Part shown: positions 7,064-18,852 of the stretch, piece by piece
How the letters are laid out: every line of letters begins with the position of its first letter
How positions within the stretch are numbered: the stretch's first letter is position 1
NCBI GenBank assembly: GCA_049289035.1
Contig: JBAQIV010000048.1
Coordinates: 1 to 24,000, forward strand
Direction of reading: 5' to 3'
Source: Candidatus Saccharimonadales bacterium
Lineage (GTDB): Bacteria; Patescibacteriota; Saccharimonadia; Saccharimonadales; Saccharimonadaceae
Length of the DNA: 24,000 bases
Program-made: the position numbers and the translations under genes
The notes under the pieces: model-generated
Told to the model about the DNA's origin: nothing
Databases searched by the model: none
The model's input: the letters and a program-made list of their open reading frames with translations, nothing else

Positions 7064-8938
7064 TTAGAGACTCGCCAGGTGCTCACCTTCACCCATCTGG
7101 TAGACTTTCACCGTGTCACCATAGCGTTCGCCAAAGGGACCAATGGCGCCCATATCGAGCGCTGTCTGCGTGGGATATTCTTTGAATGTAACCGGTAAAT
7201 CGGCTGCTATCCAGCCATTGACCAGTGCTTCGGCACGCGCAATCTCCTCGGGCGTCATTTTACGGTCGAGGTTGAAGTCAAAACGCAGGCGCTCTTCGGT
7301 AATGTTACTCCCGTGCTGGCGCAGTTCTGGACCAAAAATTTCACGCAGAGCCGACTGCAGCAGGTGCGTCCCCGTGTGGTAACGTTTGTGTTGCATAGTG
7401 TGGCCGCCGAGGCCGCCTTTGAACACACCTTTTGCGGCGGTCTTACTCCGTTCACGCTGTTCGACCATTTTGGCGTCAAATTGTTCGCGCCAATTTGCTG
7501 GTAACTTGATGTCGCGCTTAAAGCACTCCTCGACACTAAGTTCAACCGGAAAACCGTACGTATCATAGAGCGTAAATAGAATCGCGCCAGCCGACGAATC
7601 ACATTCATCATCAGAAGGGGCCCGCCCCTTCTCGGGTGCCGCTGCTTCGCTGCGCGGCAGCCCGCCTTCCCCCGACTCATCGGCAGTAGCCGCTGAGTCG
7701 CCCGCGCTTCGCACGGGTGCGAATGCTTTTTCAAGCATTCGCAGGCCCTTCCTGAGCGTCTGGCGGAAGGTCTTCTCTTCCTTCACCAGCACAGCGATCA
7801 CGTTTTCACGGTTTTCTTTCACCTCAGGGAAATCTGCTTCGTATATGTCAGCGATGACCGGCACGATGGCCTCCAGAAAATTCTGCTCGATGCCCAGTTC
7901 AAACGCAAAGCGAATCGCCCGCCGCAGCAAACGGCGCATGACATAGCCTTGCTCTTTGTTGCTCGGCGTCACGCCGTCAACCGCAAGGAAGGTCGCCGCA
8001 CGCAGGTGGTCGGCAATCACGCGCATGCTTACAGTGTGGCTGTCGTAGTTTTTGCCACTTATGCTTTCGAGTTTCTCAACAATCGGCCACATGATCGATA
8101 TTTTAAACATGTCTGGACTATCTATCGCAGCCATTGCAATACGTTCCAACCCACCGCCAAAATCAATATTTTTGTTCGGTAAATGCTCAAAGCCTTTTTC
8201 GGTGCGGTAATACTGCATGAGGACGTTGTTACCGATCTCTACAAATCGGCCACAATCACAGTTCGGGTGGCATTTCTCTCCATATGAGGTGTCATGATCT
8301 ACAAAATCGAACTCATAGAATATCTCCGTGGACGGGCCGCCAGGTTCGCCGACAGGCATATCTTTGATCTTGCCGTTACGACACCACCAGTTTTTGCTTG
8401 CATCATAATAAAATACCCGTTCACCAACCTGCATACCTCTCTCGGCTGCATCTTGTTCGGATCCTAACTCGGCGTCGGTTGCCTCGACTCCAGCATCTTC
8501 GAAAAGTTTCAACCAAATATTTGCAGACTCGGTATCTTTGGGGATGTTAAAATCTTTGTCACCTATAAATGCCGTGACGTACAGCTTGTTTGGATCAAGC
8601 CCGATGATTTTAGTGTAAAATTCAAAGATCCACGGCAACTGCTCGGTCTTGAAGTAATCACCCAGCGACCAGTTACCCAACATCTCGAAAAATGTATCGT
8701 GCCGATTATCGCCTACTTCTTCTATATCTTGAACACGAATCACTGTCTGCGAATCAACCAGTCGCGCACCATGCGGATGTTTTTCGCCCAGCAGATAGGG
8801 CAGTAGCGGCTGCATACCACTGCCAGTAAACAGCGTCGTGGGGTCATTGTCTGGCACTAGGCGCGCCCGCGGGATCACCGCGTGGCCGCGTTCGGCAAAA
8901 AATTGCAAATAAGCTGTGCGTATGTCTTGTGCATTCAT
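7064..8938 (-). CDS. alaS: Alanine--tRNA ligase (class II), interrupted by an in-frame TAA before the last 46 codons; no C-Ala domain
   Basis: 624-aa ORF. The N-terminus MNAQDIRTAYLQFFAERGHAVIPRARLVPDNDPTTLFTGSGMQ is typical of AlaRS. LYDTYGFP and the editing-domain HTGTHLL (HxxxH) are present. The ORF ends ...GEGEHLASL-TAA exactly where the family has S-x-E-L-C-G-G-x-H. Confidence 0.9.
   Translation of the reverse strand: MNAQDIRTAYLQFFAERGHAVIPRARLVPDNDPTTLFTGSGMQPLLPYLLGEKHPHGARLVDSQTVIRVQDIEEVGDNRHDTFFEMLGNWSLGDYFKTEQLPWIFEFYTKIIGLDPNKLYVTAFIGDKDFNIPKDTESANIWLKLFEDAGVEATDAELGSEQDAAERGMQVGERVFYYDASKNWWCRNGKIKDMPVGEPGGPSTEIFYEFDFVDHDTSYGEKCHPNCDCGRFVEIGNNVLMQYYRTEKGFEHLPNKNIDFGGGLERIAMAAIDSPDMFKISIMWPIVEKLESISGKNYDSHTVSMRVIADHLRAATFLAVDGVTPSNKEQGYVMRRLLRRAIRFAFELGIEQNFLEAIVPVIADIYEADFPEVKENRENVIAVLVKEEKTFRQTLRKGLRMLEKAFAPVRSAGDSAATADESGEGGLPRSEAAAPEKGRAPSDDECDSSAGAILFTLYDTYGFPVELSVEECFKRDIKLPANWREQFDAKMVEQRERSKTAAKGVFKGGLGGHTMQHKRYHTGTHLLQSALREIFGPELRQHGSNITEERLRFDFNLDRKMTPEEIARAEALVNGWIAADLPVTFKEYPTQTALDMGAIGPFGERYGDTVKVYQMGEGEHLASL
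7613..7717. other. GC-rich, hairpin-dense in-frame extra segment inside alaS
   Basis: Consecutive hairpins: AGAAGGGGC/GCCCCTTCT (7613-7632); GGG-TGCCGC/GCGGCA-(G)-CCC (7634-7663); CGACTCA-x-CGGC/GCCG-x-TGAGTCG (7673-7700); CCCG/CGGG (7701-7717). The segment encodes the low-complexity peptide PVRSAGDSAATADESGEGGLPRSEAAAPEKGRAPS, which canonical AlaRS lacks. Confidence 0.6.
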
Positions 8939-12045: not shown

Positions 12046-12468
12046 TTATATTGTAGCAGGCTGAGCAGTGAGTGGCTGGCCCGAGGTGGGATCACGGCGA
12101 TACACGTTACGCATGACGCGTTCGTAATAGGCCTGCACTGCGGCCGAAAGGTTGTGTAATTCTTCGCCTTCGATAAACGAATACATACCGTTGTCTTGAA
12201 CTTTCAAGATGCCGCTACTGTGTAGCTCATACCGAGTCGTGCGCGATTGTTTTTTGTTGTGTTCGTCTTTCCACTCTTCGTACCACACCCAGGTGTGATC
12301 GTCGAGACGAAAAAATTCACGGCGATGACCAGCCGCAACGGGGCCAAATATCGTCGCGCCTTGTTCGCTCTCGATCTCTATCAACTGGCGTTTGGTCAAA
12401 TGTTTTGGCTGATAGGGTGTTGCCGTCTGACCAGTAAGTAGTGTTGTGATTTTCTGGAGCGCCTTCAT
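12046..12468 (-). CDS. Hypothetical protein (140 aa)
   Basis: ORF with a 4-nt overlap to the upstream ORF. Composition looks globular (WVWYEEWKDEH..., YYERVMRNVY). No recognisable motif. Confidence 0.6.
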   Translation of the reverse strand: MKALQKITTLLTGQTATPYQPKHLTKRQLIEIESEQGATIFGPVAAGHRREFFRLDDHTWVWYEEWKDEHNKKQSRTTRYELHSSGILKVQDNGMYSFIEGEELHNLSAAVQAYYERVMRNVYRRDPTSGQPLTAQPATI

Positions 12469-12884
12469 GACGACCTGCCTTTGTTGATTTGCTGGAGGTG
12501 CGTAACTCGGCAGGCTTCGAGAAATGCTGTAATTTGAGTAATACGCAGGCGGGCAGCTGTATCTGTCTCACCACTGGGTGACGTTTCCGTTGAGGCTTGA
12601 GCATGGCTAGCCGCTTCCTCTGTCATAGTACCTAACAATGCCGGGTCAAACGCATGGTCAGGACTGTAGAGGTTGATGGTTCGTTTTTCGAGGGCACGCT
12701 GCGTCAGAAACGGTGCAGCGTCGCTCGTACCATACGATTCATTGACGGCTTTGCGGGCCAGATCAACAGAAAATACCGACTCGGCACCCGCTGCCTCATC
12801 GGTATATATACGCTCTGGCGCACCACGGCCAGGAATCATAAATGTATTGGGGACGGTTGCTAAAGCCACTGTCAATCTCTCCAC
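12465..12884 (-). CDS. Hypothetical protein (139 aa; start uncertain)
   Basis: The longest ORF starts at GTG 12884. An alternative GTG at 12869 is preceded by GGAGAG with a 7-nt spacer. No recognisable motif. The C-terminal third is overlapped by another open frame (12317-12604), so the coding call is moderate. Confidence 0.5.
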   Translation of the reverse strand: MERLTVALATVPNTFMIPGRGAPERIYTDEAAGAESVFSVDLARKAVNESYGTSDAAPFLTQRALEKRTINLYSPDHAFDPALLGTMTEEAASHAQASTETSPSGETDTAARLRITQITAFLEACRVTHLQQINKGRSS

Positions 12885-12918: not shown

Positions 12919-13815
12919 TTATTTGAGATGAAATAGATGCGTGGCACTAGCCTCTGTTGCACGCGAGAGCTCCTGGAGATTGATAGACTGGAGATTCGCA
13001 ATATGTTCGGCAACATGCTGTAATAGTGCTGGCTCATTGACTTTACCACGATGAGGCACGGGCGTCAAGTACGGCGCATCTGTTTCGAGTAGAATTTTTT
13101 CATAAGGGATAGCTCGGTAAACCTCTTGGCGGTCACGCGCAAACGTGGCGATACCGTTGACGCCTATCAGGAGGCCACGTGATAGCGCCGCTTCCATATT
13201 TGACAAATTGTCGGTAAAGCTGTGCAATACGCCCCTGAGGCCCTTGTATTGGTCGAAAATAGGCCAAAAATCATCCCAGACCGATGTGCGCCCCTCTAGG
13301 GACGATGCCTCACGCACATGGAAAATAACCGGCAAATTATGCTCGAGTGCTAGTTCAATCTGCGCATGAAGCATGTCGATCTGCTGCTCGCGCGGGGAGT
13401 TGTCGTAGAAGTAGTCGAGACCGATTTCACCGATTGCAACGATGCTCGATATTCGATGTGCGCCAGCCGCATCTGCAGCCTCTCTACTAAAAGTGACTCT
13501 GCTTCCCGCAGTAGGCGCACTGTTCTTTTCAGTGCGCCGGTCACTTTTACGTAGAGAGGCTGCAGATGCGGCTACTATTGCACGAATATCATCTATCGCT
13601 TCCAACCCTCGCACCGCATCATGCGGGTGTAATCCGACTGCCGCCCAAGCGTTGGCGTGCGCCGCGGCAAATTCAACCGCCTCGCGCGACGTCACCTCGT
13701 CTGTCCCGACCACAATCATACGCCCGACGCCAACAGCGAGCGCCCGCTCATACGCCCCCTCGCTGTCGAGGTAACTCGCTTCTTGGATATGACAATGTGT
13801 GTCGGTGAGTGTCAT
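12919..13815 (-). CDS. TatD-family metal-dependent hydrolase/DNase carrying a ~36-40-aa in-frame insertion
   Basis: 298-aa ORF with family motifs DTHCHI, GLHPH, AIGEIGLDY, VIFHVREA, GVLHSF and LETDAPYL. About 60 residues separate HP from IVAIGE, versus about 20 in E. coli YcfH as I remember it. Confidence 0.85.
   Translation of the reverse strand: MTLTDTHCHIQEASYLDSEGAYERALAVGVGRMIVVGTDEVTSREAVEFAAAHANAWAAVGLHPHDAVRGLEAIDDIRAIVAASAASLRKSDRRTEKNSAPTAGSRVTFSREAADAAGAHRISSIVAIGEIGLDYFYDNSPREQQIDMLHAQIELALEHNLPVIFHVREASSLEGRTSVWDDFWPIFDQYKGLRGVLHSFTDNLSNMEAALSRGLLIGVNGIATFARDRQEVYRAIPYEKILLETDAPYLTPVPHRGKVNEPALLQHVAEHIANLQSINLQELSRATEASATHLFHLK
13465..13573. repeat. 109-nt near-perfect palindromic element (33-bp outer stem enclosing two hairpins) inside the tatD-family CDS
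   Basis: 13465-13487 is the exact reverse complement of 13551-13573. After a bulged C at 13550, 13488-13497 pairs with 13540-13549. Inner hairpins lie at 13499-13511 and 13514-13538. Confidence 0.9.
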
Positions 13816-15296
13816 AGCTTTGGTGCGTGCGGGTCGGGCGTATGTAGGTATTTTTTTGGAAACAGTACGCCTTCGTACGGCGTAATGACCCCACCTTCAA
13901 AAATCTTTGTAATCGCAGCGCTCGTGTCAGGCAAAAATGGCGCCAGCAATTCAGCAACTTGCTGCAGCGTACCCGCCGCGTGCAACAAAATTTCTTCCAA
14001 GTGTGCGGCCGCTTCGGGGTCGGTGTCTTTGGTCTTTGCTACCGTCCACGGTTTGACGTCCTCGAGGTACTGGTTGAGCGAGCGTACCGTAAGCCAAACA
14101 TGATCGAGCGCTTTATTGAACTCAAGAGCATGCATCGCCTCATGATACGCGTCTGAGTCATGCTCAGCCTTGACGCCATCACCGACCACACCCTGCTGAT
14201 AGCGGTTGACCATGGCAACCACACGCTGCACGAGGTTGCCCAGTTCGTTACTTAGCTCGTTGTTGTAAGCAGTTTCAAACTTTTCATACGTAAAATCGCC
14301 GTCTTCGAGAGTCGGTATGTGACGCGCAAAGAAATAACGAAAGGCGTCGAGTCCGTATTGGTCGATTATCTCTGATGGGTCGATACCGTTGCCGAGGCTT
14401 TTCGATATCTTTGAGCCACCAATATTCACAAAACCATGCGCCAATATCTTTTTCGGCAGTGGCAACCCAAGACCAAGTAAGATCGCTGGCCAAATAATGG
14501 CGTGAAACCGCAATATATCTTTGCCGATCACCTGCACATCAGCTGGCCAAAATTCGTGCCACGTTTCACTCTGCGGATAGCCAAGTACCGTGATGTAGTT
14601 ACTGAGCGCATCTATCCAGACATAGATGACCTGCTCGGGGTCATCTGGCACCTGCACGCCCCAGCTCAGGCTCTTTTTTGGGCGGCTAATAGACACGTCG
14701 TGCACGCCGTCCTTGATCAGCTCAAGTATCTCATTGCGGCGAAATTCTGGCACAATTCGCATCGTACCCGACGTTATCGCGTCACGGATCTGGTCGGTAA
14801 AATCGCTGCAGCGTAAATAATAATTCTCCTCGCTCAACTGTTCGTATGGTTTTTGGTGGTTCGGACAAATACCGTTCGTTGACTCAACCTCTTTGTCGGT
14901 ATAAAACTGTTCACAGCCCGTGCAATACCAGCCCTGGTACGTATTTTTGTAGATATGCGGACGGAGTTGCTGCCATATATACTGCACTGCTGCGATATGC
15001 TGGGCATCGGTTGTACGAACAACATCGGTAAAGCTCGCGCCAACCTTCTCGGCCATTTGGCGAAAAGCCTGCGAAGACTGGTCCACAAACGTCTGCGGTG
15101 CTATACCGTGCTCGGCGGCTTTCATGGCATTTTTGTTGCCATGTTCGTCAGTGCCTATCTGATAGCGAACTTCTTGGCCGTTGACCCTATGATACCGCGC
15201 CCAAATGTCCGCCAGCAAATAGTCCATAGCATGCCCAATATGCGGTGCGCCGTTGACATAGGGAATAGCGGTCGTAATATATAATTTTTTGCTCAT
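13812..15296 (-). CDS. metG: Methionine--tRNA ligase (short form)
   Basis: Motifs YITTAIPYVNGAPHIGHA (HIGH) and KISKSLGN (KMSKS) are present. The ORF track starts at GTG 15302. I prefer ATG 15296 (MSKKLYITT...) because a TATAAT box at 15310-15305 would exclude the GTG from the transcript. The stop overlaps the tatD-family start by 4 nt. Confidence 0.92.
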   Translation of the reverse strand: MSKKLYITTAIPYVNGAPHIGHAMDYLLADIWARYHRVNGQEVRYQIGTDEHGNKNAMKAAEHGIAPQTFVDQSSQAFRQMAEKVGASFTDVVRTTDAQHIAAVQYIWQQLRPHIYKNTYQGWYCTGCEQFYTDKEVESTNGICPNHQKPYEQLSEENYYLRCSDFTDQIRDAITSGTMRIVPEFRRNEILELIKDGVHDVSISRPKKSLSWGVQVPDDPEQVIYVWIDALSNYITVLGYPQSETWHEFWPADVQVIGKDILRFHAIIWPAILLGLGLPLPKKILAHGFVNIGGSKISKSLGNGIDPSEIIDQYGLDAFRYFFARHIPTLEDGDFTYEKFETAYNNELSNELGNLVQRVVAMVNRYQQGVVGDGVKAEHDSDAYHEAMHALEFNKALDHVWLTVRSLNQYLEDVKPWTVAKTKDTDPEAAAHLEEILLHAAGTLQQVAELLAPFLPDTSAAITKIFEGGVITPYEGVLFPKKYLHTPDPHAPKL

Positions 15297-15329
15297 TGCC
15301 ACCTATTATATCCTATTTTCCTCTTTCCC

Positions 15330-15383
15330 CTGCTATAAGGTTCAACCCTGAGCAATATTGCTCAGGGTTGAACCTTATAGCAG
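15330..15383. repeat. Perfect 54-nt palindrome (two inverted 27-nt REP-like units) flanking the transposase gene
   Basis: CTGCTATAAGGTTCAACCCTGAGCAAT followed directly by its exact reverse complement. It abuts the transposase stop codon (15384-15386). Confidence 0.95.
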
Positions 15384-15983
15384 TTATCCGGCAAGCTGTT
15401 TTGACAGCAACTTTAGTTCGTCACGACGATCGACATAGTCATCGAGAAACTTCCTGTAATTACTCACATCCGGCAGCAGCTCCGTGTTAAGCCACGCGGC
15501 GTGTTTGTCGCCTAGGTAATAGCCAAGGCTCGACCATGGCCATCGTATATAATCTTCTGGATTGAGGTGGATGTACCGACTGATATGTGCAAATTGTGCG
15601 TCATCAGTCATTCGCACCGCCCGATATCGCTGCTGAAAAACAGTACCGACATGATGATATTTCCTGTTAAAATACATGCTATAGGCCGTCCCGATAGAAG
15701 TAAGAAGTTTTTTCATACCATCTTTTGAACTTTGATACACTAGCAAATGATAATGGTTCGGCATAAGACAATACGCCATAAGACTCACCTCTTTTGCATA
15801 ACACGGATACGGTTGACGGTTGGGCATTTTTGCGCCTTTTGGATCAAGATACCTTTTAAACAAGCTTAAGAATACCTCATAATCCTCATCGTCACGAAAA
15901 ACTTTTTGCTTTGATGCTCCCCTGTTATAAACATGGTAGTAAGAATCCTCAACATAGACTTTTGTCACATTTTTTGCAGGCAT
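15384..15983 (-). CDS. IS200/IS605-family HUH tyrosine (Y1) transposase, REP-associated (RAYT-like)
   Basis: HUH motif in YCLMPNHYHLLV. Also YYHVYNRG, YFNRKY..GTVFQQRY and the tyrosine-helix motif SRYIHLNP. I start at ATG 15983 (MPAKNV...). The 15 extra codons of the track ORF (to 16028) are read out of the flanking palindrome. Confidence 0.8.
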   Translation of the reverse strand: MPAKNVTKVYVEDSYYHVYNRGASKQKVFRDDEDYEVFLSLFKRYLDPKGAKMPNRQPYPCYAKEVSLMAYCLMPNHYHLLVYQSSKDGMKKLLTSIGTAYSMYFNRKYHHVGTVFQQRYRAVRMTDDAQFAHISRYIHLNPEDYIRWPWSSLGYYLGDKHAAWLNTELLPDVSNYRKFLDDYVDRRDELKLLSKQLAG

Positions 15984-16011
15984 ATATTCATCATACGCCT
16001 CTTCGCGATTT

Positions 16012-16069
16012 CCTGCTATAAGGTTCAACCCCGAGCAATAGTTTGCTCAGGGTTGAACCTTATAGCAGG
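16012..16069. repeat. 58-nt near-perfect palindrome, second copy of the REP-like doublet
   Basis: CCTGCTATAAGGTTCAACCCCGAGCAA-TAGT-TTGCTCAGGGTTGAACCTTATAGCAGG. It forms 27 bp with one C/A mismatch and uses the same 27-nt unit as 15330-15383. Confidence 0.95.
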
Positions 16070-16079
16070 TGAGTTATTG

Positions 16080-16703
16080 TTATTTACCGGCCAGTCGTAG
16101 CAAGATACGGCGCATGGCCGGACGGAAAAACAGCCAGCCGAGTGTCGTAACAAGGCCGATTGCAAAAAAGGCAATCCATGAAAACCGTCGCAAATACGGT
16201 TCGGCGGCTAGCCCAGCGAAGTACACACCTGCCGTAACCGTACCGGCCCACAGGACCGCCCCTGTAACATTGGCAACCAAAAACTTTGGATAATGCATCT
16301 TGAGTATGCCAGCGAGCGGCCCAGCAAATATGCGCAGCAGTGCGACAAACCGCCCAAAAAACACCGCCCACATACCGTGCCGGTGAAAAATCGCCTCTGA
16401 TAGCGCAATATTATCATCACTAAATTCATGCGGCAACTTTGTCTGCAGCACTCGCAACAAACGCCGCCCATAATGGTATCCGAACCAGTACCCCACTGAG
16501 TCGCCAATACTTGCGCCTACTATAGCAACAGACGCCACGACGACTGGGTTAATATGTGGATTATGTGCCGCTAAAAAGGCCGCGCTCATCAGGGTAATTT
16601 CACCTGGGAGCGGCACCCCAAAACTCTCGATCATGACCACACCAAAGACAAACGCGTAAATAAGATCAGGTGAAAGTGACTGCAAAAATTCCATGACATG
16701 CAT
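16080..16703 (-). CDS. DedA-family (SNARE-associated/VTT domain) membrane protein
   Basis: 207-aa polytopic membrane ORF with the DedA signature region MIESFGVPLPGEITL and FFGRFVALLRIFAGPLAGI. Confidence 0.85.
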   Translation of the reverse strand: MHVMEFLQSLSPDLIYAFVFGVVMIESFGVPLPGEITLMSAAFLAAHNPHINPVVVASVAIVGASIGDSVGYWFGYHYGRRLLRVLQTKLPHEFSDDNIALSEAIFHRHGMWAVFFGRFVALLRIFAGPLAGILKMHYPKFLVANVTGAVLWAGTVTAGVYFAGLAAEPYLRRFSWIAFFAIGLVTTLGWLFFRPAMRRILLRLAGK

Positions 16704-18003: not shown

Positions 18004-18852
18004 TGTTTGCCACTGTTCTATACTTAGTTCCTGCGCGCGGGCATCGGGAGAAATATTGGCTTTTTGCAATAGTGCCCCTGCGTCAGTTTTGCTGATAGCG
18101 AGGCCGGCGGCAAGCGAGCTACGCAGTTTTTTGCGGCGTTCGGCAAAACCGGCATGCGCGAGACGAAAAAAGGCTTTTTGCTGGTCGGTAGGCACGAGTG
18201 GCTGGTCGCGGCGGCGTAGTATGACCACTTGGCTATCAACTTTGGGTGGTGGCGTGAATTTGTCGCGCAGCACCACGGGCCCCAGACTGACGTCATGAAA
18301 CACCTGAGCCGACAGTGACAACAGGCTCATCTGCCCCGGACCAGCCGCGAGCCGCTCGGCCACTTCTTTTTGTACCAGTAGCACCGCAATTTTTGGCCTA
18401 ATAGGCCCTTCAGACACTTTACGAACGATTTTATTCGTGATGTAGTATGGAATATTGCCTACAACGATAAAGTCATCAGGCAGCCCCGTAAAGTCGTACG
18501 AGAGTATGTCCTGGTGTACCACCTCGAGATTTTTGCCTGGGAACTGCCCCAGCAACTTGCGTGCCAAATCCGCGTCATATTCTACCGCAATCACCCGTTC
18601 GGCCCGCGCCAACAGTACACTTGTCAAAGCGCCTTGTCCCGGGCCTATTTCCACTACTATAGAGGGGCTGGCAAACCCGCCCCGTGTGCCTTGCGAAGTA
18701 AATTCGCGACGCACACTCCCTGCCCCTAAAGGCTGCTCTACCGCTTGCTTTGTAGCCATAGGAAGCTGCTGTCTTGGGAGGGCACAATCGACAATCGCCT
18801 CGAGAACGAGGCGATCAGTGAGCCAATGCTGGCCGAGTTCTTTTTTGGGCAC
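17986..18852 (-). CDS. rsmA: 16S rRNA (adenine1518/1519-N6)-dimethyltransferase RsmA/KsgA carrying a ~34-aa in-frame insertion
   Basis: Motifs LGQHWL (family LGQNFL), SAM-binding VEIGPGQGALT, VVGNIPYYIT, FTPPPKVDS and FAERRKKL are present. 42 residues lie between AIVDCA and VEIGPG, versus about 8 in E. coli KsgA as I remember it. Confidence 0.88.
   Translation of the reverse strand: MPKKELGQHWLTDRLVLEAIVDCALPRQQLPMATKQAVEQPLGAGSVRREFTSQGTRGGFASPSIVVEIGPGQGALTSVLLARAERVIAVEYDADLARKLLGQFPGKNLEVVHQDILSYDFTGLPDDFIVVGNIPYYITNKIVRKVSEGPIRPKIAVLLVQKEVAERLAAGPGQMSLLSLSAQVFHDVSLGPVVLRDKFTPPPKVDSQVVILRRRDQPLVPTDQQKAFFRLAHAGFAERRKKLRSSLAAGLAISKTDAGALLQKANISPDARAQELSIEQWQTLTNLS
18655..18780. other. Extra in-frame segment of rsmA containing an imperfect 14-bp hairpin
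   Basis: The segment encodes LPRQQLPMATKQAVEQPLGAGSVRREFTSQGTRGGFASPSIV. Hairpin GTGTGCCTTGCGAA-GTAAA-TTCGCGACGCACAC lies at 18684-18716 (one mismatch, one G-T). A GGGGC...GCCCC pair lies at 18664-18683. Confidence 0.55.

Follow-up and report, generated by a model that had tools for sequence, protein, structure and literature searches.

The stretch analysed here, called the window in what follows, comprises positions 1 to 24,000 of contig JBAQIV010000048.1 in the assembly GCA_049289035.1 of a Candidatus Saccharimonadales bacterium (Patescibacteria). It holds a 740-bp module in which the gene of a predicted HUH endonuclease of the Y1 type, a relative of the transposases of the IS200/IS605 insertion sequences (IS) and of the repetitive extragenic palindromic (REP)-associated tyrosine transposases (RAYTs), is bracketed by two palindromic hairpins. 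Read along the minus strand, the locus consists of dedA (16080-16703), a hairpin, the Y1 gene, a second hairpin and metG, and the module occupies the whole gap between dedA and metG (Table 1). Throughout the text, G000 denotes the genome of the window, C48 and similar labels denote its contigs, and G001 onward denote other members of the order.

Layout of the module

Both palindromes are head-to-head doublets built from one 27-nt unit. The 3' doublet is a perfect palindrome of 54 nt, made of 27 and 27 nt with no spacer, while the 5' doublet measures 58 nt and has 27-nt arms, one mismatch and a loop of 4 nt. The 26-nt unit CTGCTATAAGGTTCAACCCTGAGCAA occurs four times within the 740 bp and was met in none of 100 shuffles, which confirms the two doublets and the fourfold 27-nt unit given in a preliminary description of this DNA. 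When folded as single-stranded DNA, the 3' doublet reaches a z-score of -11.3 and the 5' doublet one of -13.0. The preliminary description also held that the module fills the DedA-metG gap and ends about 20 nt before the metG -10 box, and the distance measured to TATAAT is indeed 19 nt. The role of terminator that it had thought possible for the downstream palindrome finds no support, as there is no T-run.

The open reading frame (ORF) between the doublets encodes 199 residues from an ATG. A TTG-extended reading of 214 residues was considered but is not supported, since it would overlap the upstream palindrome and since all of 45 homologues have M1-P2 unchanged.

A scan with consensus promoter and terminator models detected neither on the minus strand at the hairpins, and the -10 boxes of Table 1 were therefore assigned by eye and from their conservation. 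The layout proposed for the Y1 gene recurs in its orthologues, with TATACT, 6 nt and ATG in both G004 and G001. The hairpins take the position where a -35 element would be expected, for the Y1 gene as well as for metG. In the start region of metG (window 15294-15310), a conserved extended -10-like box (TCTGTTACAAT in six genomes of the genus, TATAAT in G000) lies only 8 nt before the ATG and there is no Shine-Dalgarno sequence. The Y1 genes are arranged alike, with the -10 box 6 nt before the ATG, which suggests leaderless transcripts. An Rfam scan of the module locus and of the locus of its solo copy (see below) returned only spurious, sub-threshold matches to miRNA hairpins.

Table 1 Position of the module and of its boundary elements in the window
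Feature	Position	Strand	Remarks
5' hairpin doublet (upstream of the Y1 gene)	16012-16069		starts 10 nt past the dedA stop; fold -31.9 kcal/mol
Putative -10 box TATGAT of the Y1 gene	15990-15995	minus	6 nt before the ATG, 16 nt after the 5' doublet; predicted only
Gene of the 199-aa HUH/Y1 endonuclease, TIRYT-like, without distal helix-turn-helix tail	15384-15983	minus	stop TAA abuts the 3' doublet
3' hairpin doublet, two inverted 27-nt units	15330-15383		perfect palindrome; fold -30.4 kcal/mol
metG -10-like box TATAAT	15305-15310	minus	19 nt past the 3' doublet, 8 nt before the metG ATG at 15296; downstream boundary of the module

Class of the Y1 protein

The HUH and tyrosine-helix motifs named in the preliminary description are present as NHYH (H77 and H79) and RYIHLNP (Y137). 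In an alignment of 45 sequences the invariant residues are H77 and H79 of the HUH motif, Y137, H139, N141, P142 and S152. The sole Pfam domain found is Y1_Tnp (PF01797), with 44.6 bits for a gathering cut-off of 23. The NCBIfam models of IS200/IS605 gave no match to the window protein, and NF047646, the equivalog model of the canonical RAYT, scored 44.9 bits, below its cut-off of 80; all five Y1 paralogues of G000 score 40-48 bits on this model. The AlphaFold2 model (pLDDT 89.6, pTM 0.84) contains a structured C-terminal extension. In a Foldseek search of the PDB the first place goes to 4er8_A, the E. coli RAYT in complex with a REP hairpin (E 3.7e-7, 182 aligned columns), followed by the IS608, ISDra2 and IS200 TnpA proteins at about 135 columns (E about 1e-5 for IS608 and ISDra2). 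A sequence search of the PDB with the single protein returned nothing, and a profile of the 45 sequences gave only a marginal match to ISDra2 (E 0.18).

Identity to reference RAYT and IS200 proteins is 13-16%. Because a reference tree is unreliable at this level, the class was assigned from diagnostic motifs, curated hidden Markov model cut-offs and the ranking of folds. According to Table 1 of Quentin et al. 2018 (PMC6006769), class 1 TnpAY1 proteins (IS200) carry Y---Q and class 2 proteins (RAYT-like) carry Y---NP. The NHYH, FQQRY, YIHLNP and WPWSSL of the window protein fit the second signature of subclass 2.1 in the same table, which corresponds to Bertels group 1. Thus NH[YF]H, FQ, Y[IV]HLNP and the SS of the proximal tail, which mark this subclass, are all present. 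The distal C-terminal helix-turn-helix (HTH) of the subclass, similar to Bac_DnaA_C, HTH_23 or HTH_28, is not in the window protein, which ends at residue 199, and about 15 residues are inserted after its first helix. The RAYT motif NP(L/V)(R/K)xG of Nunvar (PMC2817692) is not in the window protein either, which reads YIHLNPEDYIRW at this place; the consensus of its family is YIHLNPxDY.

Outside the phylum, the annotated proteins closest to it are encoded on plasmids of Legionella adelaidensis and Sporomusa termitida; these "transposases" have 287-295 residues and 30-32% identity. They possess the Y1_Tnp core and a sub-threshold, Bac_DnaA_C-like HTH tail, and have the diagnostic motifs in common with the window protein. 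Judged by its motifs and nearest relatives, the window protein is thus a class 2 TnpAY1, subclass-2.1-like (TIRYT, Bertels group 1), and neither an IS200 transposase nor a canonical RAYT. The identity of RAYT given in the preliminary description holds insofar as the protein is a RAYT-like Y1 HUH enzyme, with Y...NP and a fold matching 4ER8; it fails for the canonical gammaproteobacterial RAYT, of which the score, the motif and the 5' foot of the repeat are missing.

Hairpin families, synteny and empty sites

The G000 assembly measures 880 kb in 77 contigs and is about 91% complete. It contains no second copy of the 740-bp module, collapsed repeats being possible at this completeness and number of contigs. 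Four further Y1 paralogues were found, on C68, C13, C55 and C28, with 46-50% amino acid identity to the window protein, and every one of them has a private flank hairpin: CTGCTAAGAGGTGCCTCCTCTTAGCAG for C13, TATGAAAAGGATTATCCTTTTCATA for C28, TTGTTTCAAGGACGGACCTTGAAACAA for C55 and TTTCGGAGCCGTACTCCGAAA for C68. A search for solo copies, allowing at most 5 mismatches per 27 nt (chance expectation about 2e-6), retrieved one singlet of the window type (C25:12182-12208), two solo copies of the C13 type, six of the C28 type and one each of the C55 and C68 types. Because each hairpin type is private to one paralogue and has few solo copies, we regard each of the five divergent genes as single-copy for a private and very small repeat family.

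The whole G000 genome holds about two dozen units. A scan based on architecture retrieved 14 hairpins, against 0-4 in shuffled genomes, and 12 of the 14 belong to the five families. Doublets are confined to gene flanks in G000, and the solo copies are all singlets. Most solo units are intergenic, often 3-30 nt past a stop codon, and one is located between divergent promoters, with start codons 14 and 17 nt away. The bases preceding the G000 units are CTCA/CCC (C48), TTCA (C13), TATC (C28), CTAG (C55) and CTTC (C68); the 5' GT[AG]G foot is on none of them, and GTAG occurs only within the stem of the G004 and G001 units. As the preliminary description took it, the gene has cognate palindromic doublets on its flanks, and only one gene goes with this repeat type. 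Many identical copies of the 740-bp unit, in which that description would have seen an ordinary IS, are absent from the genome, and the repeat also occurs outside the locus, where its confinement would have pointed to an isolated dead element. Its RAYT/REPIN reading is not borne out as far as a dispersed population of REPINs (REP doublets) is concerned, the window unit having a single solo copy, a singlet, and doublets at gene flanks only.

Several of these units have surroundings worth recording. The solo copy on C25 is missing from the aligned site in four sister genomes; it occupies a variable position within a noncoding region that is itself conserved. This region (about 12085-12510, about 430 nt) shows 66-74% nucleotide identity in five members of the genus. 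Some of its blocks, for example CATATGAAATAGCATGATTTGACACA, are invariant, Rfam gave no match to it, and in G003 it adjoins a RAYT-like gene (G003:C7); an RNA or a regulatory region not yet described may be located here. The C28-type units (C28:3670, C19:15581, C19:20839, C22:36499 and C31:1309) have an extra conserved box, CATCTGTTA, 7 nt past the hairpin, and its reverse complement, TAACAGATG, recurs beside the hairpins of other clades (G006_C2, G025_C26 and G003_C15). The box resembles the TGnTA... extended -10 of metG, so that a promoter element or a cleavage/guide site may be part of these units. A hairpin of the C55 type, CCATTTCAAGGTCCGTCCTTGAAATCA, lies in frame in pheT of G000 (C49:373-399), in the linker after the tRNA-binding domain, where it encodes LTPFQGPSLKS. 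In G007, pheT also carries a hairpin there, its stem altered in a compensatory way (TTGCAAGG...CTTTGCAA), and the pheT genes of G001, G004, G006 and G003 are without it. Such a hairpin within a core gene recalls the intragenic REPs of Di Nocera 2013. Other in-frame palindromes, in tatD, alaS and rsmA (window 13465-13573, 7613-7717 and about 18660-18770), were considered as members and rejected, as they have no sequence similarity to the five hairpin families.

Homologues of the Y1 protein occur in 15 of 41 genomes of the same order, with 0-6 copies per genome. Their flanks were compared at 36 Saccharimonadales loci by the best ungapped match between the 5' and the 3' flank, with 250 G000 ORFs as controls. 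A score of at least 14 was reached at 33 of the 36 family loci (median 23) against 7 of the 250 control ORFs (median 8, 95th percentile 11). Nearly all the shared flank segments are hairpins of 23-27 nt, placed 10-40 nt ahead of the ATG and 0-35 nt past the stop. The repeats themselves were detected via flank-to-flank similarity, independently of palindromy. In the covariation alignment (A2), built from one centred unit for each of 28 loci, the stem core G9, G10, C16 and C17 is nearly invariant and the outer stem varies by lineage. Paired cells make up 89.3%, a percentage inflated by the centring of the units on maximal pairing, against 35-49% with the partner slid. Double-sided changes occur at all 11 pairs, and compensatory cells number 103, compared with 36.5 in shuffles. 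Head-to-head doublets similar to those of the window had independent origins at G003_C7, G030_C4, G025_C5 and G006_C4, where the two units of G006_C4 are 44 nt apart.

Beyond the order, the family is present in 26 of 100 further genomes sampled from the phylum, with 1-7 copies. Among 20 distant loci of the phylum, NH[FY]H was found in all 20, Y---NP in 19 (YIHLNP in 17) and flank repeats in 15. Plasmids rarely carry the family (14 of 72,556 records, at most 36% identity), and it is nearly absent from phages too. Two members of the family are decaying. One, in G006 (G006:C3:73599-74183), has two in-frame stops, and the other, G019:C5:161697-162188, is a very divergent copy (25% identity, long branch) with site flanks that match those of G007_C2 and G036_C6 across families. 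In the 3' flank of the orthologue on G001:C19, a 15-nt tandem duplication (TAAATCTATAGGGTCTGA twice) takes in both the stop codon and the 3' hairpin's left arm.

The hairpins can be compared with the ends of the relatives in other phyla. The TIRtron/TIRYT group of Di Nocera et al. 2013 (PMC3733652) equals subclass 2.1 of the TnpAY1 proteins (Quentin et al. 2018, PMC6006769) and group 1 of the RAYTs of Bertels (PMC5581495), and many of its flanking repeats have the motif GGGGWSAS (PMC3733652). Terminal inverted repeats (TIRs) of 26-34 nt lie on either side of the Legionella and Sporomusa genes; they contain AGGGTCAG and GGGGTCAG and are of the GGGGWSAS type. Within the right end of the Legionella gene, CTGACCCTGTAG is identical to the 3' hairpin arm of the G004 and G001 orthologues. 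The units of the orthologues carry AGGGTCAG, which fits GGGGWSAS at 7 of 8 positions, and the window's own unit, with AAGGTTCA, fits at 3 of 8. Because of the identity between the Legionella end core and the G004/G001 hairpin arm, the hairpin of these candidate phyla radiation (CPR) bacteria looks like the end core of a TIRYT folded back on itself, with the GG/CC pairs corresponding to the G-run of the motif.

Orthologues of the window gene lie immediately upstream of metG in G006 (79% identity), G004 (64%) and G001 (62%), with orf249 on the other side, and their neighbouring genes are 68-77% identical. A second clade, made of G000_C13 and its relatives, is syntenic in five species, and a basal set has common flanks across families. 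The only pair unsaturated at synonymous sites, G004 and G001, shows a synonymous divergence (dS) of 0.72 and a nonsynonymous divergence (dN) of 0.041, hence a dN/dS of 0.057. The remaining syntenic pairs are saturated, with a proportion of synonymous differences (pS) of 0.81-0.86 and of nonsynonymous differences (pN) of 0.13-0.25. Despite a pS of 0.84, the C13-type hairpin is identical at 25 of 25 positions between G000_C13 and G004_C35. Domesticated or sedentary behaviour, as suspected in the preliminary description, is borne out by one chromosomal position in four species and by strong purifying selection, unlike the multi-copy IS200.

Clean empty sites were found in G002, G003, G005 and G010, where the orf249 stop is directly followed by the box TCTGTTACAAT and the metG ATG lies 8 nt on. 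The TCTGTTACAAT box is also conserved in G001, G004 and G006, and its counterpart in G000 is TATAAT. In the occupied genomes the hairpin-gene-hairpin module lies exactly between the orf249 stop and the metG box. At this site dedA is present in G000 only, and sister genomes have paralogues with 31-37% identity elsewhere; on this comparison of sequences dedA is a lineage-specific gene gain at the 5' boundary of the module, and the ancestral site is orf249|metG. That dedA might be cargo inside the module was considered and rejected, as there is no hairpin remnant between orf249 and dedA. The empty site that the preliminary description proposed to look for between dedA and metG exists in four species, as an orf249|metG junction.

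The closest relative, G007 (MetG 88% identical), has no gene at the site and has kept one hairpin, TCTCAAGG-CCGCA-CCCTGAGA. This hairpin is to be read with caution, as it adjoins a run of N in the assembly with the same sequence of about 55 nt on both sides, at the position of the module; the N-run may stem from scaffolding, stand for a withheld stretch or reflect a population that is heterogeneous at the site. The host tree from MetG and orf249 is star-like, with the supported pairs (G000,G007), (G006,G003) and (G004,G001), whereas the tree of the Y1 gene reads ((G000,G006),(G004,G001)). Occupancy therefore needs at least two losses or repeated site-specific gains.

Interpretation and relation to known systems

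Taken together, these results make it likely that the locus is a module of the REPtron/TIRtron type, in which a single-copy gene for a Y1 HUH single-stranded DNA endonuclease of class 2, subclass-2.1-like, is bracketed by its own cognate hairpins. Units of this kind, with a single-copy class 2 Y1 gene and cognate flanking repeats that coevolve with it, are known from Nunvar 2010, Di Nocera 2013 and Quentin 2018. By analogy with E. coli TnpA-REP (PMC3479197) and IS608 TnpA, the protein would bind the hairpin form of its unit on single-stranded DNA. Recognition would go through the conserved GG/CC pairs near the tip, the lineage-specific outer stem giving specificity, and Tyr137 together with the H77-x-H79 metal site would cleave and rejoin the DNA beside the hairpin. 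DNA binding and cleavage, the choice of strand, the cleavage site and any benefit to the host are all inferred. An activity of binding, cutting and rejoining would account for four flank units and a solo copy that are nearly identical, for the independent head-to-head doublets and loop flips, for the rare solo units seeded in intergenic spots, and for the clean gain or loss of the whole module at the junction of the orf249 stop and the metG promoter. Moreover, the retention of the gene under strong purifying selection in a genome of less than 1 Mb argues that it is not junk and has kept a function.

Some observations weigh against this explanation, beside the inflated percentage of pairing mentioned above. 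A lone 27-nt half unit folds poorly (-1.9 kcal/mol, z -0.6), the strong fold being that of the doublet only. The orientation of the flank units, read from the asymmetry of the loop, is inverted at about half of the loci and direct at the other half, and even differs between orthologues (direct in G004, inverted in G001). The two-gene host tree does not settle whether the occupied genomes form a clade, and leaves vertical descent with losses beside site-specific gains. Dispersal is minimal, with 0-1 solo copies for the window lineage across four genomes, and the enzyme may therefore do something other than multiply its repeats.

An ordinary autonomous IS of the IS200/IS605 type, with tnpA only, would move the whole unit by peel-and-paste; the hairpins would be its left and right ends, and the empty sites would be never occupied or precisely excised. 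The hairpin-gene-hairpin anatomy with a Y1 HUH enzyme fits this account, as do the seamless presence/absence polymorphism at one site, the interleaving of occupied and empty genomes on the host tree, the patchiness of the family (0-7 copies per genome) and the end hairpins in direct orientation at some loci, comparable to the left and right ends of IS200. We nevertheless hold it to be unlikely, since the closest copies in the genome have only about 50% amino acid identity and the 740-bp unit is unique, the tyrosine motif is the Y...NP of class 2 where IS200 has Y...Q, and no NCBIfam IS200/IS605 model matches. Syntenic orthologues with saturated synonymous divergence and a dN/dS of 0.057, the near absence of the family from plasmids and phages, and the existence of solo hairpins without the gene also speak against an ordinary IS.

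The palindromes could instead be regulatory DNA or RNA elements of the host (transcript-end stem-loops, or operators or insulators in the promoter regions of metG and adjacent genes) beside which the Y1 gene landed, with a protein that does not act on them. Units directly past stop codons and 5-19 nt upstream of -10-like boxes, the solo unit of the divergent promoter region (14 and 17 nt from the starts), others 3-30 nt past stops, and the conserved TGnTA...-containing box beside the hairpin in some families would suit such elements. However, the hairpin sequence tracks the protein clade and flanks both sides of 33 of 36 genes, the empty orf249|metG sites have no hairpin yet retain the metG promoter box, no T-run terminator is present, and in relatives from other phyla the homologous core forms the terminal inverted repeats of the gene, all of which makes this account highly improbable. 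That the module is a dead relic, an old insertion with gene and ends persisting by chance and inactive, agrees with the single solo copy of the window unit, with sister genomes that have no copies beyond the flanks, and with the decay of some members (the two in-frame stops of G006_C3, the strong divergence of G019_C5). It is hardly credible for a module whose ORF is intact, with catalytic residues invariant in 45 homologues and a dN/dS of 0.057, whose hairpins are conserved well beyond synonymous-site divergence, and whose five unit copies in G000, including the lineage-specific solo copy, are near-identical.

A broader proposal can be built on the REPtron/TIRtron-type module, and we offer it as speculation that is unlikely to hold. 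Patescibacteria would harbour an HTH-less branch of subclass 2.1 in which terminal repeats became compact hairpins, and co-resident, mutually specific enzyme/hairpin pairs would be kept by ultra-small genomes under strong selection. The hairpin, often with a -10 box, would be a portable stop-codon/promoter-boundary module that the enzyme installs, flips, doubles or removes, also in frame within core genes such as pheT. If so, the system would perform host-level editing of intergenic and linker DNA, and would not be a selfish multiplier of repeats.

Among bacterial transposases that may have been domesticated, those encoded by RAYT and TIRYT genes are the best known, and to our knowledge their role in the host has not yet been established. 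The kind of system described here is already known, and some members are labelled "RayT" or "transposase" in databases; the host group is new, and so are two details, an HTH tail that has been lost and ends that take the form of hairpins. Published surveys (PMC6006769, PMC5581495) are older than most CPR genomes, and subclass 2.1 is listed there as lacking an association with hairpin repeats. Among the top-ranked literature matches, no paper combined RAYT, REPIN, IS200 or tyrosine transposase with Saccharibacteria, TM7 or Patescibacteria. The subclass-2.1 signature is found in about a quarter of the sampled Patescibacteria genomes, at 1-7 copies, mostly with cognate flank repeats, many of which are hairpins. 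In one genus the copies stay at fixed positions under strong purifying selection, in genomes of less than 1 Mb where little dispensable DNA persists. Our work also connects plain TIRs and REP-like hairpins via a common core sequence, and such a small system, a 199-residue enzyme with a 25-nt substrate, would be handy for biochemistry.

Three known systems invite comparison. With the TnpA proteins of IS200/IS605 elements (IS608, ISDra2, IS200), the window protein shares the HUH/Y1 core and fold, and the module shares hairpins that adjoin both gene ends and a seamless presence/absence at one site compatible with peel-and-paste. It differs by Y...NP in place of Y...Q, by a length about 50 residues above the core-only TnpA of about 150 residues, by the lack of near-identical copies and of tnpB, and by syntenic orthologues under strong purifying selection.

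The REPtron is formed by a canonical RAYT (TnpA-REP, E. coli YafM, PDB 4ER8) and REP/BIME/REPIN elements (PMC2817692; PMC3479197; Bertels & Rainey 2011). Likenesses with the window module are the Y1 HUH fold, which gives the best structural match, the Y...NP motif, the C-terminal extension, one gene per repeat type, cognate and coevolving flank hairpins, the occurrence of inverted doublets, and a chromosomal location retained over the long term. In contrast, the window protein is under the NF047646 cut-off and without NP(L/V)(R/K)xG, and its units are without the 5' GT[AG]G foot. Solo unit copies number 1-6 here, against tens to hundreds, and are singlets, not REPINs. Canonical RAYT genes always have inverted flanking REPs, whereas the orientation varies in the window family; the doublets of the window itself, with cognate units on both sides of the gene, are symmetric.

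The TIRtron differs from the window module in its protein of about 240-295 residues, against 199 residues without the Bac_DnaA_C-like HTH and with the insert of about 15 residues. Its ends are plain TIRs of 26-34 nt, whereas those of the window family are self-complementary hairpins of 23-27 nt, sometimes doubled; the window's own unit has drifted from GGGGWSAS, and the host belongs to the Patescibacteria. The resemblance extends to the motifs NH[YF]H, FQ and Y[IV]HLNP and the proximal tail with SS, to a low copy number, to the presence within a single genome of divergent paralogues that have separate flanking repeats, and to dispersed repeat families that are small or absent. Finally, the flank core (A/G)GGGTCAG / CTGACCC is common to TIRYT repeats and to the hairpins of the orthologues.

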